A stretch of DNA of 52,745 nt from a virus: IMG/VR virus record IMGVR_UViG_3300043184_000117. One strand, written 5' to 3'. This document shows, in pieces, positions 6,284 through 50,253 of the stretch. Below the pieces are notes generated by a model. The model worked only from the letters and a program-made list of their open reading frames with translations, did not search any database and had not been told where the DNA came from. The first letter of the stretch is position 1, and the number at the start of each line of letters is the position of its first letter. The position numbers and the translations under genes are program-made.

Positions 6284-8356
6284 CTAGTGTTTAGCTTCTT
6301 CGTCAATTAGTTTAGGATTAATGTGGTAGTAGGTTGTGTTTTTTCCATCAACTCTTCCCCGGCAAGGAGATCCTAATAGGTTTACTAATGTGTCACAAAA
6401 TACATGCTTATTAATGCTATATTTATAGCCGTTATTTGAAATCCAAAGAGAAAATTGTTTGTATAAATTATTTCTAGACACTCTTGTAAAAGTTTCATCT
6501 TTTTCTAGGGTTAAGCCCTCTTCTTTAATAAAATGCTCTAGAGGAGTGTGATATTTAAAAGTTTGCTGTTCTTCCTCAAATTCTTTAAATACTGGTTTAA
6601 TAAAAGGCTCAGATTGAGATTCATCAATACTTTGCCACATATTGAGGTAATTTAGTGCGTTAATTTCTTCCCAATCCATCTTATCTAATGTATTTATTTG
6701 AAAAAACCGACGAACAGAGGTGGCGTCTTTAATGACATATTGTAGGTTCAGATTGGATGCGCCTATAAACGTTGAATTGTTATCGCCCACGGCATTACTA
6801 TTTGTGCCTAATCTTCTGTATTGAATTTTTTCAGAAGTTATTTTATTTTTTATGCTTTCTACATCAGCTGTTTCTGCTTTACTCATTTCATCAATAAAAT
6901 ATACAAAATAGTTAATCAAATTAAAAGCTTCTCTAGTGTCTACTAGCTTTTTAAAGTCGCCATCATAATAAACTAGCTCGTGTATAGGATGTAACATTTT
7001 TTTAATTAGTTGAGATTTTCCACTCCCAGATTTGCCTACTAAAACTGGCATATTGTGATAACTTACAGAAATGCCGTAAATTTTACGCTTAACCTGCCAT
7101 AAAAAATGCTTTAAAACGGCAACATGTAAAGTACTATTAGATCCTGTTATTGCTTTTACCAATCTCTCAAAATCAAATTCAGCACTAGGATTAAACGCTA
7201 TATATGATTTTAATTCTTCAAATCGAACTTGTTTTTTGTCAGTACTAAGTTTATTTAAAATAGACGAAATAATTTGAAAACTGATGTTTTTTCCCATAAT
7301 TGTTTGAGAGTAGTTACGTATCTCCTCTAAAACATACTCAATATCTCTTTTGTGCCCGTCTAGATAAAACTGCCCATCAAGGTTAACTGTTAGAAATTTT
7401 TCTGCCATAAAAGTATTAACTATTTCTTGATCAGGAATAGGAGCTAATTTACCATTTTTATCAGTATACCGCATCTTTAGCGGATGCATACTGCCTACCA
7501 TAGATGTATCATAGTTCCAATTTTTATCGGTATAACAATAGCTTATTTGGTACGTATCTTCCTCTGATAAATGCCCAGTAATTTTTCTTATTTTATCTTC
7601 ACACTCCTGCCTAGTAAACCCAGCGGCTTTTAAGTTTTTTACAGCTAAATTCCTATTGGTGTGCCATTCACCGTCGGGCGCACCTGATTGTAAAAATAGC
7701 AAAGTTCGTTTACTGAGTTTTTGTATTTTAGTTTGATCGTCATTGAGGGGGCTTTTAAAAATGGCGGTTTGTGTGGCGCGGTAGTTACTGTTTGTTGGGC
7801 TAATTACTTTTATTCTTTTAACATCTATTTTATTGTGATTAAAAAAGAGCTCTACAGTAGCGGTATTTGAATTAAAAAAAAGATTAGCTGGAGAACAGGT
7901 TTGAGCGTCGTTGTTATTTCTAAAAACGGTAGAAGCTATAAAATTGTAGGTAGCTTTGTACTCTTCTTCAGTAGTTATTAGGGTGCTTGTTGGCATTATT
8001 ACATGAAATTTATCCTCTCCCCAGACTTGGTGGGAATAAGATGTGTATACCGCAAACTCATATCCAGACATGTCTAACTCTACTAAGCAAGAATTTAAAT
8101 CAATCCCACTATCTACATCTAAAACAATAATATTTGTGGATATAAAATTTGCCCTAGCTCTACGACCATCTTTCATTTCTGAGGGAGTAATCGGGACTTC
8201 TGAGGCGCGCTTAGCTACCTCCTCAATAGTTTCAAATTGTTCAGTTTGTCCTTGAATGCAAAACCTACCCCTATCTGCTTTATGAGCTTTTAGTGCCTCT
8301 GGATCTTTAGTTTTAATGTTTAAGGATCCATTAGGATAAGTTGTTATTTTAAACAT
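6284..8356 (-). CDS. Primase-helicase (VirE/BT4734-like N-terminal primase domain plus D5/P4-type P-loop NTPase)
   Basis: RRARANFISTNIIVLDVDS...FAVYTSYSH...KFHVIMP (VirE_N-like); VLVGKSGSGKS Walker A, FIDEM Walker B. Start moved to MFKITTY (RBS AAGGAGA). Confidence 0.8.
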   Translation of the reverse strand: MFKITTYPNGSLNIKTKDPEALKAHKADRGRFCIQGQTEQFETIEEVAKRASEVPITPSEMKDGRRARANFISTNIIVLDVDSGIDLNSCLVELDMSGYEFAVYTSYSHQVWGEDKFHVIMPTSTLITTEEEYKATYNFIASTVFRNNNDAQTCSPANLFFNSNTATVELFFNHNKIDVKRIKVISPTNSNYRATQTAIFKSPLNDDQTKIQKLSKRTLLFLQSGAPDGEWHTNRNLAVKNLKAAGFTRQECEDKIRKITGHLSEEDTYQISYCYTDKNWNYDTSMVGSMHPLKMRYTDKNGKLAPIPDQEIVNTFMAEKFLTVNLDGQFYLDGHKRDIEYVLEEIRNYSQTIMGKNISFQIISSILNKLSTDKKQVRFEELKSYIAFNPSAEFDFERLVKAITGSNSTLHVAVLKHFLWQVKRKIYGISVSYHNMPVLVGKSGSGKSQLIKKMLHPIHELVYYDGDFKKLVDTREAFNLINYFVYFIDEMSKAETADVESIKNKITSEKIQYRRLGTNSNAVGDNNSTFIGASNLNLQYVIKDATSVRRFFQINTLDKMDWEEINALNYLNMWQSIDESQSEPFIKPVFKEFEEEQQTFKYHTPLEHFIKEEGLTLEKDETFTRVSRNNLYKQFSLWISNNGYKYSINKHVFCDTLVNLLGSPCRGRVDGKNTTYYHINPKLIDEEAKH

Positions 8357-8438
8357 AAAATATATCTCCTTGATATGGTTCATACTACTAGATGATTTTT
8401 AGAAAGTAAAGTACTGTAGCATTGGAAATCACCTCAAA

Positions 8439-8581
8439 CAACACTAGAGCAACAAAAAGTAAACAACCTAAACCCTTAAAATTATACGAAAAAAGGTCCT
8501 AAAATATACTGTTGTTGTTTTTTTTGTAAAAACTTAAGGATATATACTATATATAGATTTTTTATTTTTTGTAATATATAA
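8439..8581. repeat. Inverted repeat copy A (143 bp); partner is 43417-43560
   Basis: Base-by-base alignment with the reverse complement of 43417-43560: 2 substitutions and a 1-nt T-run indel. Weaker similarity (~21/32) continues to 8613 vs 43385-43416. No ATG on either strand. Confidence 0.9.
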
Positions 8582-8687: not shown

Positions 8688-9056
8688 ATGTCACGATCAA
8701 AAAAACACAGAGGATTGTATGCAAATTGCCACTACGATTACAACAAGGAATTTGTTGATATTGATTATATTAATAAACTAACCGATGAAGAAGCGGAATG
8801 GTATAGTAATTTTTTAGACAATTACTACGGTGGTAGATTTAAAAAAGATGACAGTAAAAATCCTATAAAAGACCGAAATGCTTCATATAATGCGGCACAT
8901 GAGCGGCGTAGAGATTTTATGTCAGCTAGGTTTAAATCTAGGATTAAATATTATGAAAATATGCATGAAGGTTTAGAAGCCACTGAACGAGGGATATACA
9001 AAACCACCCAACTCTCAACCCCACCTAAACCATCTCTTTCGGAATCAGATGAATAA
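8688..9056 (+). CDS. Hypothetical protein (122 aa)
   Basis: ORF track; RBS AGGAA. Confidence 0.6.
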   Translation: MSRSKKHRGLYANCHYDYNKEFVDIDYINKLTDEEAEWYSNFLDNYYGGRFKKDDSKNPIKDRNASYNAAHERRRDFMSARFKSRIKYYENMHEGLEATERGIYKTTQLSTPPKPSLSESDE

Positions 9057-9522
9057 CCTACAACTAACCGTATTTGCAGAACCCTTCTCAATTAACAAAG
9101 CTTACTACTTAAAATCATATGGATCTATGTCTGCCACAAAAGTAAGGACTAAGGAATGTAGGGAGTGGGGTGATAAGATATTATTTCAATTTGAAAAATA
9201 TAGTAATGATTTTAAGCAATTTAAAGAATGTTTTAATGAAGATACTGATGCATTGCGCATAGAGTTGACATATAATATACCAAGGGATTATTATTATACA
9301 AAAGAAGGTAAAATTAGTTTGAGGTCTTGTGATTTGACTAATGTAGAAAAGTTGTTGGTTGATATACTATGCGATGAGCGATTTAATGGAAGATATTTAA
9401 ACGGTAATAAAATATTAAATTTAAACATAAATGATAAGTATATTACCGAATTGTTTAGTGAAAAAAAGCCCAGTGATAAGGAGTATAAAATAATTATAAA
9501 AATTATTAAAATACCCAAATAA
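9049..9522 (+). CDS. RusA-like Holliday junction resolvase
   Basis: AEPFSINKAYY (cf. RusA PPSNNRYY) and CDLTNVEKLLVDILCDE (cf. RusA DLDNLQKAAFDAL). Confidence 0.5.
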   Translation: MNNLQLTVFAEPFSINKAYYLKSYGSMSATKVRTKECREWGDKILFQFEKYSNDFKQFKECFNEDTDALRIELTYNIPRDYYYTKEGKISLRSCDLTNVEKLLVDILCDERFNGRYLNGNKILNLNINDKYITELFSEKKPSDKEYKIIIKIIKIPK

Positions 9523-9553
9523 TAACCTTACTAAGTTAGAATAAAGGTGAGAT

Positions 9554-9835
9554 ATGAAATCAGAACTACAAGACGCCCTAGAATCCAGCCAATTGTTAAA
9601 TGAAGCCCTAGACCTTACTCGCGCCCACCTCTCTCAATTATCTCAAAAAGTAAAAGACGGCGAGAGTATTACATCTCAAGATGCGTTTGCTTTATGCTCA
9701 TATATAAAAACCCTTACCGGGTTTGAAAAAGCTAAACGTGAGTTTAAAAAAGACGATAAAAAAGAGATATCACTACTTACAGATGAAGAGCTCCAAGAAG
9801 AATTACGAAAATTGTCTATTAAGGGGGCGGTATGA
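9554..9835 (+). CDS. Hypothetical coiled-coil protein (93 aa)
   Basis: ORF track; RBS AAGGTGAG. Confidence 0.55.
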   Translation: MKSELQDALESSQLLNEALDLTRAHLSQLSQKVKDGESITSQDAFALCSYIKTLTGFEKAKREFKKDDKKEISLLTDEELQEELRKLSIKGAV

Positions 9836-10257
9836 TTGAGTGCATAATCCGTCCTCCAGATATTTCCGACACCGGGTTTATTTTCAATAGCTGGCTAAAA
9901 AGCTACCGCAACTCGGATTTTGCCAAACACCAGTGTAATGCTGTGTATTTTGGATCGTACAAGTTTATTGTTGAAAAAATAATTGAAAAGAGTATGATCT
10001 ATGTGGCATGCGATCCTAAAGATTATACACATGTGTATGGGTATGTAGTTTTTCAAGAACTACCTAAAAATAACCTATTATTACACTACGTATATGTAAA
10101 ACATACCTATAGAAAAATGGGAGTAGCTAAAAAGCTTCTTAAACAAATAGTAAAATCGGAAAACCCAATTCTTGTCACGCACTGGGCTCAATCGTGTAAA
10201 AAAACAGATCAAACAAAATTTATTTACGACCCATACAAAATACAAGGAGCTGTATGA
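9832..10257 (+). CDS. GNAT-family N-acetyltransferase-like protein
   Basis: HYVYVKHTYRKMGVAKKLLKQI resembles the GNAT motif A (R/Q-x-x-G-x-A). Confidence 0.5.
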   Translation: MIECIIRPPDISDTGFIFNSWLKSYRNSDFAKHQCNAVYFGSYKFIVEKIIEKSMIYVACDPKDYTHVYGYVVFQELPKNNLLLHYVYVKHTYRKMGVAKKLLKQIVKSENPILVTHWAQSCKKTDQTKFIYDPYKIQGAV

Positions 10258-10685
10258 TTTTTAAATGCTTAAAATTAGATCAAGAAGCAAGAACGCCCTC
10301 AAAAGCCCACCCTTTAGATAGTGGGTTTGATTTATATACGATTGAGGGGGTGTCACTAAGACCCGGTCAAACTGCGATAGTTAGGACTGGAATTGCTATT
10401 GAACTTCCATATGGGTTTGAAGCCCAAATCAGACCGCGCAGTGGAATTAGTGCCAAATCTGGATTAGTTGTAATGTTAGGAACTATTGATAACCAATATC
10501 GAGGGGAGCTGGGTATTATTGTCAAAAATGTCGGATTTGATTTAGAAGTTATTCCAAAAGGAATGAAACTCGCTCAACTAGTTATTATGCAACTTCCAAT
10601 ATTTGATATGGAATTGGTGGACGAATTAACTCCAGCCAGATCTAGAAATTCCAGCGGATTTGGCTCATCTGGAAACGGGGTTTAG
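10254..10685 (+). CDS. dut: dUTP diphosphatase (trimeric dUTPase)
   Basis: DSGFDLY, IRPRSGISAKSG, GTIDNQYRGELG, SGFGSSG motifs. Confidence 0.9.
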   Translation: MIFKCLKLDQEARTPSKAHPLDSGFDLYTIEGVSLRPGQTAIVRTGIAIELPYGFEAQIRPRSGISAKSGLVVMLGTIDNQYRGELGIIVKNVGFDLEVIPKGMKLAQLVIMQLPIFDMELVDELTPARSRNSSGFGSSGNGV

Positions 10686-10686
10686 T

Positions 10687-10911
10687 ATGGACTTTAAAGA
10701 TTTATTACAAGAGTATTCAAATTTATGTACTCGAATTGGGGATTACACTATACAAATTAATCACCTTTCTAGAAAATTAGATAAAATACAAACAACTGAT
10801 TCTATTATGACAACAGATGACCATAAACAATATTTAAATGCTTTTAATAAACGAAAAGAATTAATTGACGATGCTGAACTTATACTATCAATATTAAGGA
10901 GAGAAGAATGA
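10687..10911 (+). CDS. Hypothetical protein (74 aa)
   Basis: ORF track; start moved to MDFKDLL just after the dut stop. Confidence 0.5.
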   Translation: MDFKDLLQEYSNLCTRIGDYTIQINHLSRKLDKIQTTDSIMTTDDHKQYLNAFNKRKELIDDAELILSILRREE

Positions 10912-11126
10912 ATATCCAAAGAATAAAGTTTTATCTATCAATAAAATGTAGTATTCAAGGCAACGGAAAAACAGAATTTAATTACATAGACACATCCGTC
11001 GATCCTTATATTATTACACTTAAAGATAATTTAGTAAATATAACCCACACATCAACCAATGAGGAAACGTTTACTACACTGAGTAATGTGGTTTACTTTA
11101 CCAAGGTAAATGAAAAATCTAAATAA
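10908..11126 (+). CDS. Hypothetical protein (72 aa) directly upstream of terL (small-terminase position, no motif support)
   Basis: ORF track; overlaps both neighbours by a few nt. Confidence 0.5.
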   Translation: MNIQRIKFYLSIKCSIQGNGKTEFNYIDTSVDPYIITLKDNLVNITHTSTNEETFTTLSNVVYFTKVNEKSK

Positions 11127-13533
11127 AGAGCAAATAAAGTTATATATTGAGGAAGCTAAAAAACGGCTACGGGTGCCGTTTGAAATCAATAATTTTTGCT
11201 TTGACAAGCAATTAAATTTTATTAATGATCCAGCTAGATATAAAACTGCTGTATGTAGTCGTCGATGCTTAGCTGAAAACACCCTAGTTCAAACAACGGA
11301 AGGACCTAAAAAAATTCAGGATATAAAAATTGGAGATTGGGTTTTTGATGAAAACATGAAACCAATTAAAGTTGTTAAAGTGTTTAATAACGGTAAAAAA
11401 GAAGTTGTTGAAGTTTTGCATAATAATAAAATAATGTTTGAAGCCACAACTAACCATGTAATGTTAACCTATCACCCAAGGGCTGGAGGAGTAAAGCAAC
11501 GTCCGCTTAAGAATTTTTATGACGGAGTTAAGATAGTAAGAAATGAAGTAGATCGTAATAATGGCAAAGCTGTAAAATATGCATATGCTATAGGCGCACT
11601 ATTAGGGGATGGGTGTAGTAGAGTAAATTATAAAAGTTATATAACTATATCATCAGAAGATGAAATTATCCCAAATAAAGTTGGTGAATTATTGAATGCA
11701 AGCAGAATCCATAAGTGTCATACAAGTAATTATAATTATTCTATCTACTTAGACAGCATTCCACAAATTTATTTAGATTGGTGTAATACTAGATACGCGC
11801 ATGAGAAAGTATGTGATATTAATGAAATTCTAACGTGGGATAGACCTTCAAGGTTGGCATTTATTGCTGGGCTAATTGATACCGATGGATCAGTGTGCAA
11901 CGCAGCTGACGGCATTCAAATTGATATTAGCATGCAAGCAAAATCAGTTATTGAAGCAGCCCAACTATTATTTCTAGACTTATGGCAATTTAGCCCATCT
12001 ATTTTAGTTGATAGTAGACCTAAATATAAAAACGGTCCCGTATATGTGTTAAGATTTAAACATAATTACTTTGGTAAAAAAATACTTAAAGATTTAGATC
12101 CATATCTCATGACACTACGTAAAAAATGGAAAAGCGAGTATGAGTTTAAATTAGAAAATAATTATAATTCTAAATACGTAGGAGTAGTGTTTGGAAAAAC
12201 CTCAATAAAGCATACTTACGATATCCATGTCGACTCACCATCAAATTTATACATGTTAGCTAATGGATTAATTACTCACAATTCTGGTAAATCTGTAAGT
12301 TGCGCCGCACATCTTGTATCTCAATGCACATCTAAAAAAAATCAAAAATGCTTATATATAACATTAACTCGCGGTACTGCTAAAAAAATTGTATGGAAAG
12401 AGATAAATGAGATTATAAAACTACATAATTTAAACGTTGAAACTAATGGCACTGACCTAACAATGACGTTCCTAGACACAAACTCAATTATATATTTTTC
12501 TGGAGCTAGTAAAAAAGACGAAGTTGAAAAGTTTCGAGGCTTATCATTAAACCTAGTGTATATTGATGAGGTGCAATCATTTAAACCTTTTATAAAAGAG
12601 TTAATTGATGAAGTATTGGCTTACACCGTTTTGGATACCGCCGGCACCATTGCTTTAATTGGAACGCCTGGACCAATACCAGGCGGGTTTTTTTACGAGA
12701 CTTCCCACTCGATAGGCTGGAGCAACCACAAATGGACTGTATTTGATAATCCCCATATTAAACTTAAAACAGGATTAGAACCTGAAGAATTATTAAGGCA
12801 AGAGCGCGAGCGTCGTGGTATTAGTGAAAACGATCCTGCCTACTTACGAGAGGCTCTTGGAATGTGGATTCAAGATTCTGACTCGTTAGTATTTAAATAC
12901 AACCCTAGTATTAACAACTACGATAAATTACCAGATGAGGAATTGGTTCATATTTTTGGAGTAGACTTAGGATATAATGATTCTGATGCAATAGCAGTAT
13001 TAGGCTACTCACGCATTCAAAAAAAAGTATTTTTAGTTGAAGAATGGGTCAAGGATAAGCAGGGTATTACCGAACTTGCTGAACAAATTAAACTGATGAT
13101 CAACAAGTATAAGCCCGTCAAAATAAAGATCGATGCTGGTGCTTTAGGTAAGAAGATTAGTGAAGAATTAATTAGGCGTCATCAAATTCCAGTAGAAGCA
13201 TCTGACAAACACAGAAAATTAGAGTATATTGAGTTTATGAACGACGACCTCCGTACTGGCAAATTTTTAATAAAATCTAACAGTATTACTGCACACGATG
13301 CAATGCTTATGACCTGGGATATACGAACTAAAGATAAACGCACGGTATCCGATCAATTTCACTCCGATATACTTGATGCGGTTTTATATGCTCACCGTGA
13401 GGCAAAACATTATTTTGCCGAAGCTCCAATAAAAGTATACAAATCTGATGAAGTTAAAGTTAACGAGTTTTGGGAAAAAGAAGCCCAGGAATTAGAGCAA
13501 AAAAAATTGAAAGCGGAATGGTGGGATCAGTGA
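11110..13533 (+). CDS. terL: Terminase large subunit, interrupted by an intein (468-aa extein plus 339-aa intein)
   Basis: The spliced junction restores the Walker A SRR|SGKS (cf. T4 gp17 SRQLGKT). LVYIDEV Walker B, ALIGTPG coupling motif, C-terminal nuclease-like FGVDLGY...D. Confidence 0.9.
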   Translation: MKNLNKEQIKLYIEEAKKRLRVPFEINNFCFDKQLNFINDPARYKTAVCSRRCLAENTLVQTTEGPKKIQDIKIGDWVFDENMKPIKVVKVFNNGKKEVVEVLHNNKIMFEATTNHVMLTYHPRAGGVKQRPLKNFYDGVKIVRNEVDRNNGKAVKYAYAIGALLGDGCSRVNYKSYITISSEDEIIPNKVGELLNASRIHKCHTSNYNYSIYLDSIPQIYLDWCNTRYAHEKVCDINEILTWDRPSRLAFIAGLIDTDGSVCNAADGIQIDISMQAKSVIEAAQLLFLDLWQFSPSILVDSRPKYKNGPVYVLRFKHNYFGKKILKDLDPYLMTLRKKWKSEYEFKLENNYNSKYVGVVFGKTSIKHTYDIHVDSPSNLYMLANGLITHNSGKSVSCAAHLVSQCTSKKNQKCLYITLTRGTAKKIVWKEINEIIKLHNLNVETNGTDLTMTFLDTNSIIYFSGASKKDEVEKFRGLSLNLVYIDEVQSFKPFIKELIDEVLAYTVLDTAGTIALIGTPGPIPGGFFYETSHSIGWSNHKWTVFDNPHIKLKTGLEPEELLRQERERRGISENDPAYLREALGMWIQDSDSLVFKYNPSINNYDKLPDEELVHIFGVDLGYNDSDAIAVLGYSRIQKKVFLVEEWVKDKQGITELAEQIKLMINKYKPVKIKIDAGALGKKISEELIRRHQIPVEASDKHRKLEYIEFMNDDLRTGKFLIKSNSITAHDAMLMTWDIRTKDKRTVSDQFHSDILDAVLYAHREAKHYFAEAPIKVYKSDEVKVNEFWEKEAQELEQKKLKAEWWDQ
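11266..12282 (+). mobile_element. Class 1 intein with LAGLIDADG homing endonuclease, inserted in the TerL P-loop
   Basis: Starts with Cys (CLAENTLV, block A); TTNHVM (block B TxxH); two dodecapeptide motifs IGALLGDGCS and IAGLIDTDGS; ends ..GLITHN followed by Ser (+1). Confidence 0.88.
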
Positions 13534-13763
13534 TTAAGTATCAATGGGATAAAGTCCCAAGAGAATTGGTTGATTTGGAAATACCCCTTGATCTTATGAT
13601 TAAGGTTAGTGAGTTCGTGCATTTTGCCGCATCCAGAAAGCACAGTGCATATGAAAAACACGTTATCGACGATCTAGATATTATCCTCAATTCTGGGAAC
13701 TTGCCAGATGTTAACAAAAAGTATATTATATATTTTTTAACGGAGCTAAGACCTATTCAATAA
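13518..13763 (+). CDS. Hypothetical protein (81 aa)
   Basis: ORF track; start moved to MVGSVIK, overlapping the terL stop. Confidence 0.5.
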
Positions 13764-13777
13764 CTAAAGGACTCAGC

Positions 13778-14410
13778 ATGAATGTAGAATTAGTTTCTAT
13801 ATCTAAGCCTTTAAACGACATGACCCCTGAACAGTTTATAGCTTACGTAGCAAGAGTTTCTAACCCTTCAAATCAATTAAATATAGAAACTGCGCCAAAA
13901 TTATTAAAATATTGCATGGATCACGGACATTGGTCTATATTTGAAACAGTTACCTGCACATTTGAAATTAAAACTAGTAGGGCAATTGCCGCACAAATAC
14001 TCAGACACCGATCCTTTACTTTTCAAGAATTTAGCCAAAGGTATGCATCGGTTGCAGAGTTTGAAACCTACAACGCTAGACGCCAAGATACCAAAAATCG
14101 TCAAAACAGCATTGATGATTTACCTCAAGACACTAAAGAGTGGTTTATTTACGCGCAGAAACAAGTATCTGATAGTGCTTACGAATTGTATGTGCAAGCA
14201 TTGAGTAAGGGAGTTGCTAAGGAGCAGGCGCGATTTTTGCTCCCACTTAGCACCCAAACCAAGCTGTACATGACAGGCTCAATACGTAGCTGGATTCACT
14301 ATCTCAATGTGCGTACAACTTCTGATACGCAATTAGAGCATAGAGAAATTGCAATTGAAATTAAGGAAAAATTAAAATTACATTTTCCTAATATTTTTAA
14401 TAATTTATAG
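13778..14410 (+). CDS. thyX: Flavin-dependent thymidylate synthase ThyX
   Basis: ThyX signature [14 protein letters not shown] (RHRxxSxxxxSxR); size 210 aa. Confidence 0.9.
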
Positions 14411-14418
14411 CTCTAAAG

Positions 14419-14481
14419 TTGTACCCGCTAAGGTATAAATATTTATTTTTTTATTTTTTTGTACCTGAAAGGGTATAAATA
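14419..14481 (+). repeat. Two copies (40-bp period) of TTGTACC-N6-GGTATAAATA small hairpin units after thyX
   Basis: ttgtacccgctaaggtataaata and ttgtacctgaaagggtataaata; each can form a UACC/GGUA stem; the first is followed by a T-rich run. Confidence 0.6.
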
Positions 14482-14503
14482 ATGTACATCTTAAAATATA
14501 TAA

Positions 14504-14532
14504 TTGTTAAAAAAGTAAAATTATGATACTAT
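14504..14532 (+). promoter_or_regulatory. Sigma-70-like promoter upstream of the lysis cassette
   Basis: TTGTTA-N17-TACTAT. Confidence 0.4.
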
Positions 14533-14550
14533 ATATAATATGGGGAAATT

Positions 14551-14745
14551 ATGAAAAAAAGTGAAGTAGTAGACTACATAGTAAAAAATGGAAGATGTCA
14601 GATTTCTGAAATTCAAGCAGAAGATGTTTTACGTTTAATTGATGAATTAGGATTTCTTCCGCCAAGAACACAGTTAAATAAATTAAAACTACAAGATAAT
14701 GGATACGATGTTGAGGAGGAACTTTATGGCAGTCGTAAGTTATAA
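14551..14745 (+). CDS. Hypothetical protein (64 aa)
   Basis: ORF track. Confidence 0.5.
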   Translation: MKKSEVVDYIVKNGRCQISEIQAEDVLRLIDELGFLPPRTQLNKLKLQDNGYDVEEELYGSRKL

Positions 14746-15109
14746 AAAAGGATCTAAAACAAAGTTGTCCGATCATTTTAACTCTTCTGAATTTGATTGT
14801 AATTGTACTAATTGTGATACTACTTTGATTGATAGCGAGTTAGTAGAAATGCTAGAGGATTTGCGATCAGAAGTTAATGCGCCAATAAAAATTCATTCTG
14901 GATATAGGTGCGAAAATCATAACCGCGCCATCGGTGGAGCTCAAAATTCAACCCACACTGCCGGCAAAGCAGTTGATATAAGTATAAAAAATTTAGATTT
15001 GTTATATAAAGAAGCTTGTGAGCATTTTTATGCTGTAGGTGATGGTAGAAATAAAGGATTTATACACGTCGACACTCGGTCCGATAAAACCAGACGTTGG
15101 AATTATTAG
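14726..15109 (+). CDS. Endolysin, zinc peptidase M15 (D-Ala-D-Ala carboxypeptidase-like)
   Basis: HSGYRCENHNRAIGGAQNSTHTAGKAVDI...GFIHVD (H-x6-D...H zinc ligand pattern). Start moved to MAVVSYK (RBS GGAGGA). Confidence 0.8.
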   Translation: MAVVSYKKGSKTKLSDHFNSSEFDCNCTNCDTTLIDSELVEMLEDLRSEVNAPIKIHSGYRCENHNRAIGGAQNSTHTAGKAVDISIKNLDLLYKEACEHFYAVGDGRNKGFIHVDTRSDKTRRWNY

Positions 15110-39373: not shown

Positions 39374-41263
39374 CTAACCTTGTGGTAACAAATCGCTTAC
39401 TGGTGGCGCTTCGGGCACTGCCTGCGGGACTTCAGGCTGCTCCGGTTGAGGGGGTTGGGCGGCTTCGATTAGTGCCGCGGAATCCTCAATAAACCTACGT
39501 AAAAGCTCCAACTTTTCCTCTTCAACGCGACGCGTTTTGGCTTTTAGATAATATGATTGAGCGATTTGAATACACAGTTGAGGGTTCATAAATGGTTCTG
39601 GAGCCGAATATTCATCGGTTTCCATAATGTGCTCAATTACAGCGTGGATGTCGTTCCAAGCCGCAAGTTCCATATCCATGGCGTCTTCAATATCTGGGAA
39701 ATCCAACAGAGCTTTTGCGGTTGTTTGATTAATCATGCCAGATTGAAGTAATTCTTGAACTTTTTGCAAGCGACCCGCTGGTTGAGTTGGTAACAGCGAG
39801 GCGGGGTAGAGTTGTAGTAAAAATTGATCTTGACCGACTTTAATGTCTTTCCACTTTATCTCTTCAATTAAATTAGATCCTGGAACGGTTATTGAGAGTT
39901 GCGGGTTAAGTTCGGCTAGTTCTGATGCTAAATCAATTATTTGTTCACCTAGTTGAATGAAACAATCTTCGTAATGTTGCGACACTAGTGCAAATCTTTC
40001 TGTTTCAATGTCCTGGTATTCTCTCAATGCTACCCCTGAATTTAATCCGGCGGGTTTTTGTGAAGATGCGGATAATTGAGAAATGCCGGTAATGCTAAAG
40101 GCTTTGTTAAACAAAGTTTCAAGATGATTATACAACTCACTAGGCATGGCGTTGGCAGTAACAATATCAGGCTTTGTGCCAGTATACTTAACAATACTGC
40201 CGATTTTATTATTGATGTGATCTTCAACCACGCTTGAACCAGATTCAATTAGGACCCTTGGCACACATGCTAAATTTTGCGCAGACTGGATATCTCGCAA
40301 AAGTTTATTTATTTCAATCTGAATGCCTAACAATTCCTCACCTAGTCCCATGCCGAAAAAACCTAGTAGTTTGCGCGACCATCGCATAATTATAAATGGA
40401 AAATAATCGCGCTCATAGGGCTCACTCAATAATGTGCAATTTTCAATAGTAATACAGTGTCTGCCATCTTTGGCATTTTTACCTGATCTTAAATGCCAGG
40501 ATTCTCTAACTACAGCCATATCTCCACTAAAAGAAGAGGGCAGTGCTCGATCAAATTTTATCTGACCGCTAGCATTGAGGATTTCTTGCGCCTTTTCTGG
40601 AAACATGTCGATTAGGACATCTTTGCTTATGTATTTAATTTGGTGCATTTGGCGAGGTTTGCCATAAACGCCTTCAGCATCGTCAACAATTAACTCATTG
40701 ATAAATACTCGCTCAGTATGTATCCGCTCACCGTCATGGTATACTTTTACAGCACCTGTGCCAAACACTGCGGCATCTTGGAATGCTGCACTCATTTCTT
40801 GGTACGCATTAGAATCCTTAAATACCCCAGCAATAAATTTACTCAATTTTTTACTACGTTGCTGTAAACTCCAGCTGCCACCAGATGTTAAAGCTATTAC
40901 TCTTGGGCGCATTTTAGCAATTTTACTACACGCGGTATCTACACACGCCTTAACTACATTATAACTAATACGATTGCTAATAGCGGTTTGGTTAGTACGA
41001 TCATATAAACCGACTCCAAAACCTAGTATTTCTTGGTTAGCATAAAGTCGGGCGTAGCGTAGATTTTGAATTTGGCGATAAGATTGAGATTCAATAATCC
41101 CGTTGGTTACGGCGGTAATGTGCAAAAATTGATCTTCTTCCGGTTCTTTCCACCACTGAGATTTGATGCTGCCGGCTTGCGTATTTGTGTTTACGTATTC
41201 TTTAATAACTTTAGTTTTGCTATCATATTCGACCGACTTTTCAACGACTTTATTTTTAGCCAC
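39374..41263 (-). CDS. Portal protein
   Basis: 629 aa, first large gene of the morphogenesis block upstream of scaffold and capsid; GTG start with GAGG RBS; proline-rich C-terminus. Confidence 0.65.
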   Translation of the reverse strand: MAKNKVVEKSVEYDSKTKVIKEYVNTNTQAGSIKSQWWKEPEEDQFLHITAVTNGIIESQSYRQIQNLRYARLYANQEILGFGVGLYDRTNQTAISNRISYNVVKACVDTACSKIAKMRPRVIALTSGGSWSLQQRSKKLSKFIAGVFKDSNAYQEMSAAFQDAAVFGTGAVKVYHDGERIHTERVFINELIVDDAEGVYGKPRQMHQIKYISKDVLIDMFPEKAQEILNASGQIKFDRALPSSFSGDMAVVRESWHLRSGKNAKDGRHCITIENCTLLSEPYERDYFPFIIMRWSRKLLGFFGMGLGEELLGIQIEINKLLRDIQSAQNLACVPRVLIESGSSVVEDHINNKIGSIVKYTGTKPDIVTANAMPSELYNHLETLFNKAFSITGISQLSASSQKPAGLNSGVALREYQDIETERFALVSQHYEDCFIQLGEQIIDLASELAELNPQLSITVPGSNLIEEIKWKDIKVGQDQFLLQLYPASLLPTQPAGRLQKVQELLQSGMINQTTAKALLDFPDIEDAMDMELAAWNDIHAVIEHIMETDEYSAPEPFMNPQLCIQIAQSYYLKAKTRRVEEEKLELLRRFIEDSAALIEAAQPPQPEQPEVPQAVPEAPPVSDLLPQG

Positions 41264-42499: not shown

Positions 42500-42775
42500 T
42501 TACTTCCTTTGTTTAACTTCACGATATCCACATCGTTCCGAGCACATAACAAGTGTAGCATGAGGTAGTTCAGAAATCAATAACTTTGAGTGGCAGGTGG
42601 GGCAGCCGGGTGGCGATTTTTTATCGGCAGGCAAAGTGTCAGATTGCGCCACTTTCTCAATCTTTTGAATCTTTTTACGCGCCAAGTGCAGCTCTTCCTT
42701 TAATATACGCACCTGTCCTTCTAGTTCTTTAACCTGGCGTTTTAGTGCAAACTCACGATCGCTTAGTTTTGCCAT
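42500..42775 (-). CDS. Coiled-coil plus zinc-ribbon protein (91 aa)
   Basis: CPTCHSKL...CSERCG four-Cys pattern after a heptad region. Confidence 0.55.
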   Translation of the reverse strand: MAKLSDREFALKRQVKELEGQVRILKEELHLARKKIQKIEKVAQSDTLPADKKSPPGCPTCHSKLLISELPHATLVMCSERCGYREVKQRK

Positions 42776-42779
42776 AAGT

Positions 42780-42995
42780 TTACTTAGTAGTTAAGTCTTC
42801 CTTAATATCTAACCCATCCAGGTACATTCGCATGCAAAACATGCCCCACTCCAACGAACCTACTAAACTGGCATCATAGTGTAATGCAAACGCCTCAACC
42901 AACACATCTTGGTTGCGCTGTACATAATTGATAAAGGCTGGCGTGGTGCCTAGATCGACCGTGATTTTGCGTAAGCGAGCGGGCGAATGTTTCAT
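42780..42995 (-). CDS. Hypothetical protein (71 aa)
   Basis: ORF track. Confidence 0.55.
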   Translation of the reverse strand: MKHSPARLRKITVDLGTTPAFINYVQRNQDVLVEAFALHYDASLVGSLEWGMFCMRMYLDGLDIKEDLTTK

Positions 42996-43180
42996 ACTAT
43001 GCCTTTAATTAAAAAACTAGGCGACGTTGTGCGCCACCTAGCCACAAAAAGGAGTAGGGGGTCGTCATCCCCTAAATTTATTTTACTACAAACCCACATT
43101 GAAGTCAACAAAACGGTGCCGTTGGCGTAACTATTTAATTTTATTATACGCCCATCTAAACTCTCCTCTAAATGTAGCAT
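42992..43180 (-). CDS. Hypothetical protein (62 aa), first ORF after the non-coding hub
   Basis: ORF track. Confidence 0.5.
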   Translation of the reverse strand: MLHLEESLDGRIIKLNSYANGTVLLTSMWVCSKINLGDDDPLLLFVARWRTTSPSFLIKGIV

Positions 43181-43416
43181 AATTTGCTTTTACCTGGTAG
43201 TGCCGATTATTTTAAACCACACCATGAACATCGTAAAATCAACTACAATGCATTTCACTGCCAACCCCAACCTAACCTACCCACCGCCAATACTGGAGAG
43301 TTTAAGGCGGTACTTTGTTTGAATTAGGGGTATCAATGGGGGTGGTGATCGTACACCGCGGAATGGTAAAATTGATAGGTATTTATTGTGTGGTTGATTT
43401 CGCCCTGACCAACCCA
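43181..43416 (-). other. GC-enriched non-coding leader with C-rich/G-rich arms around an ACCGCC...GGCGGT hairpin
   Basis: ccaaccccaacctaacctacccaccgcc (43261-43288), hairpin 43283-43311, then ggggtatcaatgggggtggtg (43327-43347); no ORF longer than 13 codons on either strand. Confidence 0.5.
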
Positions 43417-43560
43417 TTATATATTACAAAAAATAAAAAATCTATATATAGTATATATCCTTAAGTTTTTACAAAAAAAAACAACAACAGTATATTTTAG
43501 GACCTTTTTTTGTATAATTTCAAGGGTTTAGGTTGTTTACTTTTTGTTGCTCTAGTGTTG
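43417..43560. repeat. Inverted repeat copy B (144 bp); partner is 8439-8581
   Basis: See copy A. The orientation points the same end of the element at the downstream operon in both places. Confidence 0.9.
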
Positions 43561-43727
43561 CATTAATAGCTTTTTGTGCAAATTTGTTCCTTTTTGTAAC
43601 CGCCTGAAATTACACACCACTACCATAATATCAATAAGTTGCACCACTAGATTTGCCAATACCTGTTTGATATGTCTAACAAAAGTTTGAGTAGAGAGAC
43701 ACCCTCAATGGGGTCATTGGTTGCATT

Positions 43728-43743
43728 TGCAAGATTGGTGCCA
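43728..43743 (-). promoter_or_regulatory. Sigma-54 (RpoN) type promoter, perfect consensus TGGCAC-CAATC-TTGCA
   Basis: Forward tgcaa-gattg-gtgcca; exact -24 GG / -12 GC spacing. Confidence 0.6.
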
Positions 43744-43757
43744 CATTTCATGTACGC

Positions 43758-43773
43758 TGCAAAACTGGTGCCA
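43758..43773 (-). promoter_or_regulatory. Sigma-54 (RpoN) type promoter, perfect consensus TGGCAC-CAGTT-TTGCA
   Basis: Forward tgcaa-aactg-gtgcca. Confidence 0.6.
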
Positions 43774-43790
43774 TTATGACACTACACCAT

Positions 43791-43806
43791 TGGCACCATT
43801 ATTGCA
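43791..43806 (+). promoter_or_regulatory. Sigma-54 (RpoN) type promoter, perfect consensus TGGCAC-CATTA-TTGCA, pointing antisense to the early genes
   Basis: Read directly on the plus strand. Confidence 0.55.
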
Positions 43807-43859
43807 TGTAAAAATACGGGGGCTGTTTTTATTGATGAAGGCTAAAAAACCGGGGGTGG

Positions 43860-44084
43860 TTAAAATACCCACACGACCTCACGCGCCCACTCATCAATTT
43901 GAGCACGGGCTTGCGCCACATCCGAATCTGTTAAATCTTTTGGCAACTTATACAAAAGGTCGACAACTTGCAATTCGCCGTCAGTGTCCTCCATAGCGAC
44001 CGCCTCAATCTTAACCCTGACAGTATGGTCTAAACCATCCAGCTCTAAATCAATTGACTCAGTAAACGATTTGAAGGTTTGCAT
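43860..44084 (-). CDS. Hypothetical acidic protein (74 aa), last gene of the early series
   Basis: ORF track; RBS AAGGAG 7 nt upstream. Confidence 0.6.
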   Translation of the reverse strand: MQTFKSFTESIDLELDGLDHTVRVKIEAVAMEDTDGELQVVDLLYKLPKDLTDSDVAQARAQIDEWAREVVWVF

Positions 44085-44123
44085 AAGTGGCTCCTTGGTA
44101 ATCCGATTTATTAAATCATTATA

Positions 44124-44540
44124 TCACGCCACGATAGAAATGCAAGGTAAATTATTATCATGATTTAAGTAAGCGATTCTTATAGAAATGTCGGTGCTGG
44201 TAAATTGTACCTCAATTTTAACCCTAACAATATCGCCAGGGTTTAGACTGTGCTCGTAACCAATTTTATATTTGCAAATAATTTCTGCACCAATGACATT
44301 TAATTTTATATATACATTATCAAAGATGCAATCGGTGACAACGCCCTCTAATTGCATACCATCTACTAATGGCACGAGCTGTTGGATTTTATCATACTTT
44401 TCTAAATTTAATAATTCCATTATTTCAAAAACTAACAGTACTTTTGGCGTATATATTTGGTCTATGCTCCATTCTATAGTATTGAGTTCTTTGATTAAAT
44501 CGTCAATAAATTTAATATCTTCTTGAAGCTGCTTAATCAT
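44124..44540 (-). CDS. Hypothetical protein, possible S1/OB-like C-terminal half
   Basis: Start moved to MIKQLQ (RBS AAGGAG); LEGVVTD..FDNVYIKL......GDIVRVKIE pattern is only suggestive. Confidence 0.5.
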   Translation of the reverse strand: MIKQLQEDIKFIDDLIKELNTIEWSIDQIYTPKVLLVFEIMELLNLEKYDKIQQLVPLVDGMQLEGVVTDCIFDNVYIKLNVIGAEIICKYKIGYEHSLNPGDIVRVKIEVQFTSTDISIRIAYLNHDNNLPCISIVA

Positions 44541-44635
44541 AAATAACTCCTTTGTCTCAAAAAAGTGGAGGTTTGTCTCAATTCCACCTACTTGTCCCAA
44601 TTATATCACACGCACTAATGAAGTCAACAAAATAA

Positions 44636-44971
44636 TTATTCGTGTAGATTGAGGTAGATGTCATGGACCCAATGCGCCCACAAATGCCAACACTTACCAT
44701 TGATTTCCGCCATCACTTCTTCCATTTGAGCTTCTGTCAACTCTGCCGAACTTGTATTCATTTGAAAATACACCACGTGGGTCAACTCGTGTGCTACATC
44801 AGCGTGGTCCATATCGTTCATTATAAACGTAACTACCTTTGGCTTAAACTCGGTTATAGCAGCACTGTCGGATCCATAAAGTTTGCAATATTTGGCGCGC
44901 GGCAACGTCCTAAACGTCCACTCCTCATTCAATATCTTACGCTTTATTTCTTTCACACAATCTCCCATCAT
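44636..44971 (-). CDS. Mini zinc-metallopeptidase-like protein (HExxH)
   Basis: DVAHELTHVVYF contains HELTH; 111 aa. Confidence 0.45.
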   Translation of the reverse strand: MMGDCVKEIKRKILNEEWTFRTLPRAKYCKLYGSDSAAITEFKPKVVTFIMNDMDHADVAHELTHVVYFQMNTSSAELTEAQMEEVMAEINGKCWHLWAHWVHDIYLNLHE

Positions 44972-48200: not shown

Positions 48201-50051
48201 CTATTTTATCTCACAGACAGAACCTGCGCAAGCTAATATTTCCGCTCGGTTAGTATTATCATCTAATTCCAATACTTCCGATAAGTTAATATCCGCCACC
48301 ATAGCATCATATTTGTCAAATTGCTCTTTACTACACGTTTCAAATGGCGCTTGCACATAAGTATGTCCATCATAAGGAAGTAAACTAATGCCGGAATAGT
48401 TATTTTTTTGCAGCCACATTGTAGATTTTAATATTTCTATTTCTTCCTGTTTATAATTGAGGGTGCAACTTACGTTGTGGGTGTTGTCTCCTCGGCGGTG
48501 CCCGGGCTCAATCCAATTTTTGTTATAAAATAAAACTCGTAAAAATGCTTCCATAACTGACTCTTGCTCTCTAGTTACGCAATCCTTAGGGGATTCTTGT
48601 GGTATGGTTACAACTATACCGTTTTTATCAAATTGATCAGCTTCTACTAACTCAGGCACAACTCGCATTAAATAATTTGCAAGACTATCATTTGAGTTCA
48701 TCCTGACCCGTCTTAGGTAATAGTTTGAAAATCTAGCATGTATTCCAGAAGATGAGCCAAGTACGCAACTTGCCGTACCTTCGGGTTTTATTGCAGTTGC
48801 TCTAGCGGCTAAATTTATCCCTATTTTTTTTGCATATTTTTCGTTTACCGACAATACCAACTGTGCAAGTTTTTGCAACGAATCCGAGGTTAAATTAGGT
48901 GAATCGGCAATTCCCGTAAAAGAGCAACCCAACAGCGCTTCTTCCTCGGTTACTTGCTGCCATTTTTGCGATAAATAAGGAAACTGAGTATATGAAGCTT
49001 GTAGTGTGCCAATAAGCGCTGCCGCATAAACGCGGTTTTGCATATCCTTTTCATTTTTAATTTGAGTAAGATTTGTAGTTGTTAAATTACAAAATTGATT
49101 AGTGTGTAAACTAATCTCATGGCATGGATTGTACCCCATCTCAATATTATTAGTCCAGCTAAAACCTGGCTCTCCGGAATTAGATTGGATGCACATATCA
49201 AATACGTGGCAAAATTCTTCATAAGTAGTGCTGCTCCTTAATAAAACAGCGCTGTTATTTGCTCTAGCTCTATATGGATGCTTTTCCCACCAAGATCCAT
49301 GTTTGCATGTCAACATTTTTTCATCGTGCTTATCAAATAAACAAATAAGCGCTGCTCTGCGAATGCCCCCACTAAGAACACAATCAGCAATAATACAAAT
49401 AATATCATGCAACTCAATTGAGGTTAATTGCCTGCCTGTTGCCGCCTTTAGTTTTAATTCTACCAACTGCAGCATATGTTTAAGAGGCTCGGGTCCAGGG
49501 GCTTTGGCGCCAGTGGTTACAAGATACGATCCCTTAGATCTAATTTGTGAAAAGTCAAAAATTGGTCTAATTGCGCCATTAAAGTATGCTGAAATAAGCG
49601 CGTTCAGACTTTCCGCCCACCCCTCAATACTATCGTGGATAATATGCAAATTTTCTTCTTTTGGCAGTTTAATTCTGGGTAGTTGCTTTATGTGGTGTGA
49701 TTGAATTGAGTAGCCCACTCCCACTCCGCTTAGCAACAGATACAATATTTCGGCAAAAACGCGATCATAAGTAATATGTACAAAAGAACAGTTATATTGC
49801 CGCGCATTATTTTTTAAAATTGCTTCTCCGCCAAATTGTAATCCTCTCATTGATGGCATAACTTTTAAATCATGGACTTGTTTATAAGCTTTAATAATAT
49901 CGGCAGATAAATTAGGGAACCTATCTAGGTGCATATTCATATTTCTATTGATAGTTTCACTCAACAACTCTCTTCTTCCAAGATGTGGTAAGTATTTGGC
50001 ATAAGTTCTAAAGCTAACAATTTTAGACAACAATGCATTTGATTTATTCAT
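48201..50051 (-). CDS. Class II (adenosylcobalamin-dependent, RTPR-like) ribonucleotide reductase
   Basis: YNPCHEISLHTNQFCNL (NPC-E...CNL thiyl-radical loop), N-terminus SFRTYAKY..GRRE, C-terminal CAGSVC redox pair. Start moved to MNKSNALL (RBS AGGA); the upstream extension overlaps the next gene. Confidence 0.8.
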   Translation of the reverse strand: MNKSNALLSKIVSFRTYAKYLPHLGRRELLSETINRNMNMHLDRFPNLSADIIKAYKQVHDLKVMPSMRGLQFGGEAILKNNARQYNCSFVHITYDRVFAEILYLLLSGVGVGYSIQSHHIKQLPRIKLPKEENLHIIHDSIEGWAESLNALISAYFNGAIRPIFDFSQIRSKGSYLVTTGAKAPGPEPLKHMLQLVELKLKAATGRQLTSIELHDIICIIADCVLSGGIRRAALICLFDKHDEKMLTCKHGSWWEKHPYRARANNSAVLLRSSTTYEEFCHVFDMCIQSNSGEPGFSWTNNIEMGYNPCHEISLHTNQFCNLTTTNLTQIKNEKDMQNRVYAAALIGTLQASYTQFPYLSQKWQQVTEEEALLGCSFTGIADSPNLTSDSLQKLAQLVLSVNEKYAKKIGINLAARATAIKPEGTASCVLGSSSGIHARFSNYYLRRVRMNSNDSLANYLMRVVPELVEADQFDKNGIVVTIPQESPKDCVTREQESVMEAFLRVLFYNKNWIEPGHRRGDNTHNVSCTLNYKQEEIEILKSTMWLQKNNYSGISLLPYDGHTYVQAPFETCSKEQFDKYDAMVADINLSEVLELDDNTNRAEILACAGSVCEIK

Positions 50052-50064
50052 TTTATTCCTACGG

Positions 50065-50253
50065 TTATTTGTTGTTATTAAAAATAATTTTTGTTGGAGT
50101 TTCGATTTTTTCGATTTCTTCTTTTTTTGCATCACATTTTTGACAATTAAAAACCGTAGTATGAAGTAATAGTATAGGTTTCCATACATGGTAACATTTT
50201 GATTCGTAGTAAGCGTCAGTATTTACCCAATAAGAATCCATACCATAATCCAT
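50065..50253 (-). CDS. Hypothetical Cys-containing protein (62 aa)
   Basis: ORF track; RBS GGAGGAA. Confidence 0.55.
   Translation of the reverse strand: MDYGMDSYWVNTDAYYESKCYHVWKPILLLHTTVFNCQKCDAKKEEIEKIETPTKIIFNNNK

Follow-up and report, generated by a model that had tools for sequence, protein, structure and literature searches.

The gene-free region before the virion genes

The virus record IMGVR_UViG_3300043184_000117 of IMG/VR is a stretch of 52,745 nucleotides, which we call the window; it is a whole circularised assembly, representing a phage genome of ~52.6 kb. We analysed the longest part of this genome without genes, a control region located at the head of the block of portal, capsid and tail genes, between orf74 and orf71, which we call the hub (Table 1). 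The hub was compared with the equivalent regions of relatives, which are contigs (L001 and so on) retrieved through homologs of the portal, of the helicase and of orf111; the last of these routes gave two short contigs only, of which L059 was the useful one.

In a first-pass annotation, made from the sequence alone, the segment 43181-43860 had been described as the longest stretch of the genome without open reading frames (ORFs). This is the case, as the gap from 43181 to 43859 covers 679 bp and the next gaps measure 411, 378, 344 and 304 bp. Inside it there is no ORF longer than 49 amino acids (aa) on either strand, and one plus-strand ORF of 91 aa (43721..43996) starts in the gap and leaves it antisense to orf74. 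The codon-usage scores of the gap ORFs, from -0.29 to +0.08, are at the non-coding level (the 5th percentile of true coding chunks is 0.12). At the downstream border the situation is less clear. ORF62, which had been taken as the first gene after the gap, has no homologs in the relatives and belongs to no Pfam family, and its coding score of 0.084 is ambiguous, with two conserved small genes scoring equally low. Furthermore, it carries two sigma-70-like promoter matches, TTTAGA-18-TATAAT (43172..43143) and TTGACT-17-TAAAAT (43108..43080), which score 10 of 12, and both terminator hairpins described below fall within its span. For these reasons we treat 42996-43859 (864 bp once ORF62 is left aside) as a unit, and the non-coding region most likely extends to 42996. 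The gap described earlier is therefore present, but its downstream limit rested on a doubtful gene, so that the described span is the upstream 680 bp of a region of ~865 bp. All the descriptive elements of the first-pass annotation were recovered where it had placed them or within 1 nt. The second longest gap of the window (411 bp, 50190-50600) is not empty, as two hydrophobic mini-ORFs (~35 aa) are found in it, both of them provided with a ribosome-binding site.

Regarding the genes around the hub, the cassette formed by orf158 and orf74 has its own near-consensus sigma-70 promoter (TTGACT-16-TGnTATAAT at 44627..44600). Both genes are missing in L011, whose hub directly follows the orf111 homolog. 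The cassette is a moron-like insertion, and its transcript would enter the hub. Eight small, fast-evolving ORFs of unassigned function come after the hub. The small genes that separate the hub from the portal include three tandem paralogous ORFs of 50-52 aa (MYVVY.PE.D..., 41829-42297), and TGGTGCAATATA occurs twice, 30 bp apart, in the gap between two genes of 111 aa at 44972-45050. The idea that the region separates early genes from the virion block was too simple, because in L013 and L018 the terminase gene is found just upstream of the hub on the same strand.

Table 1. Coordinates of the hub, of the elements within it and of other features of the window
Feature	Coordinates	Strand	Remarks
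Hub (whole gene-free control region)	42996..43859	minus	between orf74 (43860..44084) and orf71 (42780..42995)
C-rich/T-run segment	43806..43859	minus	after the orf74 stop codon
Exact sigma-54 -24/-12 element TGGCACCATTATTGC(A)	43791..43805	plus	points back at the 3' end of the upstream operon
Exact sigma-54 -24/-12 element TGGCACCAGTTTTGC(A)	43759..43773	minus	aimed at the virion block; predicted start near 43748
Exact sigma-54 -24/-12 element TGGCACCAATCTTGC(A)	43729..43743	minus	30 bp downstream of the 43759..43773 element; predicted start near 43718
18-bp near-palindrome TGTTAGACATATCAAACA (family TGTTWGNYATAYCWAACA)	43664..43681	none	candidate operator for a dimeric DNA-binding protein
IHF-consensus match TATCAATAAGTTG	43629..43641	plus
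AT-rich core, inverted repeat (IR) copy B	43417..43560	minus	19-22% GC
IR copy A	8439..8581	plus	divergent gap of 304 bp, flanked by the primase-helicase gene (6284..8383) and the plus-strand block (8688..)
Leader segment	43181..43416	minus	C-rich part, then G-rich part on the transcribed strand
ORF62	42992..43180	minus	62 aa, doubtful gene
Tandem intrinsic terminators	43009..43074	minus	fold z = -3.5
orf158 and orf74 cassette	43860-44627		between orf111 (44636..44971) and the hub
SU10/T7-type portal	39374..41263	minus
Virion block (major head protein, internal virion protein, tail genes)	42995 down to 15304	minus	minus throughout
VapE/D5-type primase-helicase (SF3-type)	6284..8383	minus
PD-(D/E)XK nuclease and family A DNA polymerase		minus	replication/nucleotide genes
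Ribonucleotide reductase	48201..50189	minus
Short block with dUTPase, terminase, ThyX and M15 endolysin	8688..15109	plus

Sigma-54-type sites in the hub and in related phages

The cluster of sigma-54 sites noticed in the first-pass annotation is present in the hub. Three exact TGGCAC-N5-TTGC sites lie within 77 bp (43729-43805), with their GG and GC dinucleotides spaced exactly 10 bp. The exact pattern occurs 4 times in the window against 0.06 expected, and more than one match was reached in 0 of 100 shuffles; when one mismatch is allowed, 9 sites are found against 2.4 expected. The known extended sigma-54 consensus is YTGGCACG-N4-TTGCW. Two of the hub sites are on the minus strand and face the virion block across two terminators and a leader of 540-750 nt to the downstream gene, in agreement with the leader of more than 500 nt that had been predicted, and the plus-strand site faces antisense sequence only. 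The fourth exact match of the window (TGGCACAACATTTGC, 32277-32291, minus strand) is located on the sense strand inside the gene of the internal virion protein (983 aa), and it could be an internal promoter or a chance match.

The position of the hub is conserved in the relatives, where the orf111 homolog precedes it and small ORFs stand between it and the portal; the gaps found there are free of genes over 1044 bp (L011), 625 bp (L013), 898 bp (L016) and ~610 bp (L018). Sequence conservation takes the form of short motifs surviving in hubs that are otherwise almost unalignable, namely the sigma-54 elements with a few flanking bases, the family of the 18-bp palindrome and a few other words. 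Taking as sigma-54-type those sites with GG and GC fixed and at most one other mismatch, we counted 16 sites in the 6.1 kb of hubs of seven genomes and 13 in their other 181 kb. The density is therefore 2.6 against 0.07 per kb (~36-fold), and the background rate would predict ~0.4 sites in the hubs. L024, L027 and L059 add further sites. Ten related phage genomes have them at the equivalent region, in both orientations and in numbers from 1 to 6 per hub.

How the sites vary is informative as well. The spacers differ between sites and TGGCAY and TTGC(A) are kept, the commonest base being T before TGG and A after TTGC, which fits the extended consensus. Variable spacers between fixed elements are what recognition by sigma-54 predicts, unlike a phage-specific iteron, which would co-evolve with its binding protein. 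Among the window, L011 and L059 the sigma-54 elements are some of the few conserved islands in diverged DNA: the upstream one of the two virion-facing elements has aligned counterparts in L011 (1919-1933) and, as a TGGTAT variant, in L059, a block of 23 nt around the other is common to the window and L011 (1876-1898), and so is the block CATGCAATAATKGTGCCAA at the plus-strand site. In L059, which is a closer relative, two leftward and then two rightward sites come right after the last gene. More distant phages have the sites too. L024 (46% portal identity, 53% GC) has 6 of them, in both orientations, within 190 bp of a divergent gap directly before the portal block, and in L027 (36% portal identity, 44% GC) ~700 bp of tandem repeats separate a leftward site from a pair of rightward ones, which are spaced 27 bp and followed by hairpins with T-runs. 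The repeats between the opposed sites of L027 (1800-2500) are of the CACACATCCACA type and longer, and they are partly masked.

Regarding the orientation of the sites, we considered the hubs whose left edge is available and whose upstream genes run the same way. All six genomes of this kind (the window, L011, L013, L016, L018 and L059) have one or two sites pointing back at the upstream genes, 40-110 bp past the upstream stop codon. Sites facing the virion genes are found in the window, L011, L059, L001, L015, L018 (in a second gap), L024 and L027; in L001, L015 and L018 a copy of the palindrome precedes the site by ~8 nt, and the gene lies 80-160 bp further on. The hubs of L024 and L027 are divergent and therefore their leftward sites are ordinary promoters of leftward genes. 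The opposed site of the window may be the retained half of an ancestral divergent promoter region, which now faces the end of an operon without a good terminator.

We also scanned IMG/VR with a block of 17 specified bases (CATGCAATAATNGTGCCA), so that one site per retrieved contig is present by construction and the additional sites are not. Among viral contigs unrelated to the window, L031 (at 7131-7200), L034, L040 and L057 have three tandem sigma-54-type sites 25-30 bp apart, L042 has two such sites in a long divergent gap, and L033 (288-496) has two sites in each direction, rightward and leftward, after which come a TA-rich core and consensus sigma-70 promoters. None of these six contigs has portal, capsid or helicase similarity to the window, and in five the sole match is a weak one in the terminase (~24% identity). 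Such contigs suggest that the architecture of the hub recurs in other phage groups.

Other elements of the hub and the genome that carries it

The AT-rich core of the hub, which had been labelled as one copy of an inverted repeat, indeed has an inverted match with 98% identity over 144 bp next to the primase-helicase gene, 34.8 kb away, and weaker similarity continues for ~40 bp more. As the copies are inverted, each has the same orientation toward the block that it precedes, copy B facing the virion genes and copy A the terminase block. The GC content drops to 19-22% here (43400-43520), the mean of the window being in the mid-30s %. The core contains two tandem sub-units of ~45 bp and words of the TTACAAAAA type (2 direct and 2-3 inverted copies), together with overlapping sigma-70-like sequences in opposite orientations, which are consensus matches only: TTGAAA-18-TAAAAT on the minus strand (43523..43494), and TTTACA-17-TATATT (43468..43496) and an extended -10 (TGTATAAT, 43511-43518) on the plus strand. 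A cruciform was considered and rejected, because the DNA folding z is ~ -0.6 and the dyad is no more stable than in shuffled sequence; the distinctive trait of the core is its long-range duplicate and not an internal dyad. A TA-rich centre of low complexity is found in the hub of every relative. Between phages the core can hardly be aligned. The helicase-side gap of L021, a contig of the sample set that also yielded the L010/L011 phage, matches the core of the L011 hub in inverted orientation (77% over 112 nt), and that of L022 does so as well (90% over 48 nt). Copies that are alike within a genome while the core evolves fast point to a phage-specific binding factor or to gene conversion.

Between the sigma-54 sites and the core there are several shorter elements. 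The 18-bp palindrome occurs once in the window; the relatives have members of its family, located either in the hub or in those non-coding gaps that precede the portal block (three in L011, two in L016, and also in L001, L015, L018 and L013). The IHF-like site of the first-pass annotation is present, one base off, but its pattern occurs 8 times in the window against 6.7 expected, which taken alone is chance level. A similar motif, AACYTATTGATA, is found in the hubs of L016 and L018, in the latter at the edge of the TA-rich core. The word TTGCACCA was also confirmed (43639-43646). It occurs 7 times in the window against 2.05 expected, and we rejected it as an NtrC-type site, because the second half-site is missing and the seven copies are all on the plus strand; we read this one-strand enrichment as a probable coding-strand effect.

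At the upstream end of the hub, the C-rich/T-run segment is there as described, but no convincing terminator was found in it, its fold z being -0.9 and the terminator scan giving weak hairpins only. On the other side of the core, the 236-bp segment that had been called GC-enriched is enriched modestly (40-51% GC at 43200-43360) and shows no significant secondary structure (fold z -1.35 and -0.7). As read from the sequences, C-rich tracts of the CACCCCCAT type also lie downstream of the TA-rich core in L011 and L018. The leader ends in tandem intrinsic terminators. Hairpin 1 (43074..43055) is followed by CUCCUUUUU, and hairpin 2 (43043..43015), with 12 pairs and then U6, ends 14 nt before the ATG of orf71 and is the top-ranked terminator on the minus strand within 33-52.7 kb. 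A large structured RNA, one form of the non-coding RNA proposed earlier, gains no support: Rfam gave 0 matches at the gathering score in the window, with chance hits only (E at least 1) at permissive thresholds, the same was true for the loci of nine relatives, and the fold z of the leader ranges from -0.3 to -1.35. A short terminated transcript from the hub is possible but speculative. In L001 (541-677) and L015 (727-862 and 538-632) we noticed a conserved element of ~137 nt after a consensus sigma-70 promoter, which opens with a 10-bp hairpin (GGAAGUAGCG/CGCUACUUCC), is partly duplicated in L015 and is missing from the window.

The genome as a whole is podovirus-like, with a single-strand virion operon of ~28 kb. 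The ends of the window are identical over 127 bp (1-127 and 52619-52745) and lie inside the DNA polymerase gene, so that the polymerase ORF is split by the window boundary. ARAGORN found no tRNA genes in the window. Neither blastn of 42000-45000 nor tblastn of the portal gave a match among 50,697 phage records of INPHARED; metagenomic homologs of the portal number 1,773. The large terminase (11110-13533) has 807 aa and its terminase match spans residues 389-769 only, the N-terminal ~320 aa matching helicase and endonuclease PHROGs. As the terminases of the relatives have 460-473 aa, except that of L022 (805 aa), this protein looks like one with a fused or inserted domain. The nucleotide-metabolism set (2454-2813, 10254-10685, 13778-14410 and 48201-50189) comprises a MazZ-type dATP/dGTP diphosphohydrolase (PF18909), a dUTPase/dCTP-deaminase-like protein, ThyX and ribonucleotide reductase. 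Among the replication genes, at 46308-47906, there is a protein of 248 aa made of ~9 tandem repeats of 22 aa (LKSLKGAPKEVGGSFYCHNNN), and downstream of it, with an ORF of 93 aa between them, a PA14-domain protein with a lipoprotein-like N-terminus (LLSACG).

Interpretation and comparison with known systems

The segment 43181-43859 is best explained as the upstream part of a transcription-control region of ~865 bp that the phage lineage would have kept at the head of its portal, capsid and tail genes. More specifically, we propose, at about even chances, that the hub switches the transcription of the virion block by means of the host sigma-54 polymerase. A scan of ~50 ORFs against Pfam and PHROG detected no Sigma54_activat, sigma factor, RNA polymerase or recombinase family, and with no polymerase or sigma factor gene detected the phage must use the host polymerase. 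According to the proposed mechanism, the host sigma-54 (RpoN) RNA polymerase would sit on the cluster as closed complexes and fire only once these are opened, by a host enhancer-binding ATPase or by an unrecognised phage factor, which would make the virion block conditional. The transcript would then cross the AT-rich module, with its own overlapping sigma-70-like promoters, continue through ~400 nt of unstructured leader and read through the tandem terminators. The opposed site could give an antisense transcript, or it could stop transcription that runs in from the upstream operon, whose end lacks a good terminator. The AT-rich module might double as an unwinding element in a replication origin that sigma-54 transcription would activate, by analogy with the primary origin of T7. 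Of the three possibilities raised in the first-pass annotation, the regulatory switch is the best supported, by the non-random, conserved sigma-54 sites and by the strongest minus-strand intrinsic terminator at its end; its overall interpretation is partly supported, a switch being likely, an origin possible and a large non-coding RNA unlikely. Phage YuA offers a precedent, as it has a sigma-54-like promoter backed by mapping of the transcription start site and by a promoter trap (Ceyssens 2008, as cited in PMC10914365). In E. coli, sigma-54 promoters with unusually long 5' untranslated regions exist (PMC4591121), and therefore a long leader is no problem for the switch.

Several points weigh against this proposal. 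No gene for an enhancer-binding activator was found in the phage by scans for motifs, for Walker A and for Pfam/PHROG families in ~50 ORFs, and no recognisable upstream activator site either; the unannotated ORFs have neither a GAFTGA/GESGTGK-type motif nor a Walker A motif, and the one GAFSGA match (~20.7 kb, in the tail-gene region) was taken as chance. The leader has a length of 540-750 nt, and the hairpins of the terminators in which it ends are not conserved in L011 or L013. In L013, L016 and L018 the hubs have back-pointing sites only, and consensus sigma-70 promoters (TTGACA-17-TATAAT) stand directly before the downstream genes, so sigma-54 is not the universal driver of the virion block. 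Five relatives (L004, L023, L025, L026 and L028) are without such sites in the DNA examined. The relatives found within metagenome-assembled genomes are binned to Peribacteria, Elusimicrobiota, Rhodobacteraceae, Caulobacterales, Chlorobiales and Myxococcales, which is taxonomically inconsistent and uninformative about the host, whose rpoN is presumed. A Bacteroidota host seems unlikely, given the consensus sigma-70 promoters and the Shine-Dalgarno sequences of the clade. Finally, the expression of genes overlapping intragenic sigma-54 sites of E. coli was reportedly unaffected by binding (PMC4591121), which weakens the idea of a roadblock.

Among the other explanations, a replication origin is the one that we take most seriously, though tentatively. 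The AT-rich core would be the unwinding element, the palindrome and/or the TTACAAAAA words would be the sites for the SF3-type primase-helicase, IHF would bend the DNA and the nearby promoters would activate initiation; copy A, at the helicase gene, would be a second origin or a helper site like crr of P4, and all of this is compatible with a switch. The low GC content over ~120 bp and the TA-rich centres of all the relatives' hubs fit an origin, as do the IHF-consensus match of the window hub, the AACYTATTGATA motifs of L016 and L018 and the iteron-like short repeats in the hubs of relatives, which are clearer than those of the window (the L016 and L018 hubs have TTTCACG words, and that of L011 has three copies of TGTTTGGYATACCTAACAA). 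The replicative helicase is of the VapE/D5 type, a class that includes origin-binding initiators such as P4 alpha, and copy A abuts its gene. Moreover, the copies are alike within a genome (98%, or 77% for L011/L021) and the core diverges between phages, as a phage-specific binding protein would give. However, two origins are unnecessary in a genome of 52 kb, and the helicase-side gap of the L015/L020 phage is just 72 bp, so the duplication is not universal. Copy A lacks the palindrome, the IHF matches are at chance frequency, the internal dyad is unremarkable, and an origin leaves the universal sigma-54 consensus unexplained. The GC skew of the window tracks gene orientation; it is confounded by it and therefore uninformative as an origin marker. 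Actually, promoters would explain most of the features that favour an origin equally well. The sites might also be there without productive transcription, as a sink that binds the scarce host holoenzyme on replicating phage DNA and shuts the host sigma-54 regulons, or as a roadblock or insulator separating the hub from the upstream operon. We consider this unlikely, and we know of no sigma-54 decoy of this kind. It would account for the multiplicity of the sites (1 to 6 per hub) and their two orientations, for the activator gene that was not found in the phage and for the site that always faces incoming upstream transcription where a good terminator is missing; in addition, sigma-54 holoenzyme binds promoters in a state that is inactive in transcription (PMC4591121). 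Nevertheless, in L001, L015, L018, L024 and L027 the sites are at ordinary promoter distance, ~80-160 bp upstream of same-strand genes, and the bound intragenic sites of E. coli mentioned above reportedly left the expression of the overlapping genes unchanged (PMC4591121).

The remaining explanations concern the physical structure of the genome or an RNA product. Packaged genome ends or a packaging site in the hub would resemble the long non-coding left end of T7, with its strong host promoters before small early genes, and we regard this as improbable. The assemblies of L001 (1-40) and L015 (1-30), which are independent, start at most ~20 nt from a common homologous point, located next to a poly-A run at the outer edge of the core; the small fast-evolving ORFs follow the hub, the terminase gene is ~1.5 kb upstream in L013 and L018, and L001, L013 and L015 have consensus sigma-70 promoters. 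But the poly-A run or a repeat explains the contig breaks equally well, the window was assembled as a circle with its overlap in the polymerase gene, and L011, L013, L016 and L018 assemble through the hub. A terminal repeat was not seen, and an exact-pattern scan for a repeat at the other end of the L001 contig gave a single match. A gene for a non-coding RNA, large and structured or small and regulatory, is very improbable. A long gene-free stretch with promoter-like sites would suit it, and the TTGACT-17-TAAAAT match in ORF62 would start an RNA of ~65 nt with a 5' hairpin, the CUCCUUUUU stretch, which is complementary to a ribosome-binding site, and a terminator; the conserved element of L001 and L015 (137 nt) likewise has its 10-bp 5' hairpin after a consensus promoter. 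Against such a gene are the absence of any Rfam family in the window and in the loci of nine relatives, a fold z of -0.3 to -1.35 on either strand except at the terminators, and the fact that hub conservation is confined to short motifs resembling protein sites, the L001/L015 element being absent from the window. Least probable of all is that the 144-bp inverted repeats are recombination sites which flip a segment of 35 kb, with the hub as the border of an invertible region. The repeats have the identity, the inversion and the spacing for it, and the terminase block, which is upstream of the hub in L013, L015 and L018, converges on the tail genes in the window. However, flipping between the copies would not give the rearrangement seen among the relatives, the window was assembled in one orientation, and no invertase or recombinase gene was detected in the ~50 ORFs scanned; for this last reason a Gin/Hin-type invertible segment, whose inverted repeats are present, was rejected as a parallel.

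Returning to the sigma-54 switch, phage expression programmes are known mainly through sigma-70 promoters, phage sigma factors and phage polymerases, and the use of sigma-54 has been reported sporadically. In the literature we found no account of clusters of sigma-54 sites in the control regions of lytic phages, YuA being the sole precedent found. In this lineage the sigma-54 consensus is the most conserved non-coding feature, always at the same control point, although the GC content differs greatly among the hosts that the lineage spans. Active sites would tie virion production to the signalling state of the host, that is, to whichever activator is on, and the missing activator gene of the phage raises the question of how the complexes are opened. 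A doubtful but consequential answer is that this lineage, and apparently other IMG/VR groups, are controlled by host sigma-54 without an AAA+ enhancer-binding protein of their own: a small phage protein would open the complexes by a new non-AAA+ route, with the palindrome that abuts several sites as its candidate operator, or the clusters would be decoys or insulators that exploit the non-firing holoenzyme. The duplicated AT-rich module is a concrete candidate for a replication origin or for the co-regulation of two gene blocks. Even if the hub is ordinary, it is still useful as an annotation landmark for the clade.

The primary origin of T7 consists of the tandem promoters 1.1A/1.1B and then an AT-rich segment. 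The hub is alike in that its two tandem promoter elements precede a very AT-rich segment by ~160 bp, the genome being podovirus-like and having a primase-helicase and a family A polymerase. It differs in that the promoters are of the host sigma-54 type and not those of a phage polymerase, the AT-rich module is duplicated and in three relatives the sites point away from the core; the role as an origin is putative. In satellite phage P4, ori and crr are two separated cis sites with defined octamer iterons, bound by the alpha primase-helicase. Here too a cis element is repeated at two distant places, one of them beside the gene of a D5/VapE-class helicase; however, the copies are inverted, octamer iterons are not evident and binding is putative. 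The late switch of lambda is formed by pR'-tR' with the antiterminator Q. In the hub, promoter-like sites are also closely followed by strong terminators before a virion operon of ~28 kb, although no Q-like family was found in the ~50 ORFs, the terminators are missing in L011 and L013 and the upstream promoters are of the sigma-54 type.

Regarding sigma-54 itself, the intragenic and antisense sites of E. coli and Salmonella (Bonocora et al. 2015, PMC4591121) are conserved consensus sites whose position and orientation likewise misfit the picture of a promoter followed by its gene; those sites are single and inside host genes, whereas the hub sites are clustered and intergenic in a phage. Compared with the RpoN-dependent promoters, including that of YuA, the hub differs in that the gene of an enhancer-binding protein and a recognisable upstream activator site were not found and activity is predicted here from the sequence. 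It also differs in its clusters of 1-6 sites in both orientations, which extend across an uncultured lineage, and in the sites turned back toward the preceding operon in all six genomes named above. The likeness lies in the sites themselves, which have exact -24 GG and -12 GC elements with canonical spacing and flanks, and in the apparent use of an alternative host sigma factor by a phage in which no polymerase gene was detected.

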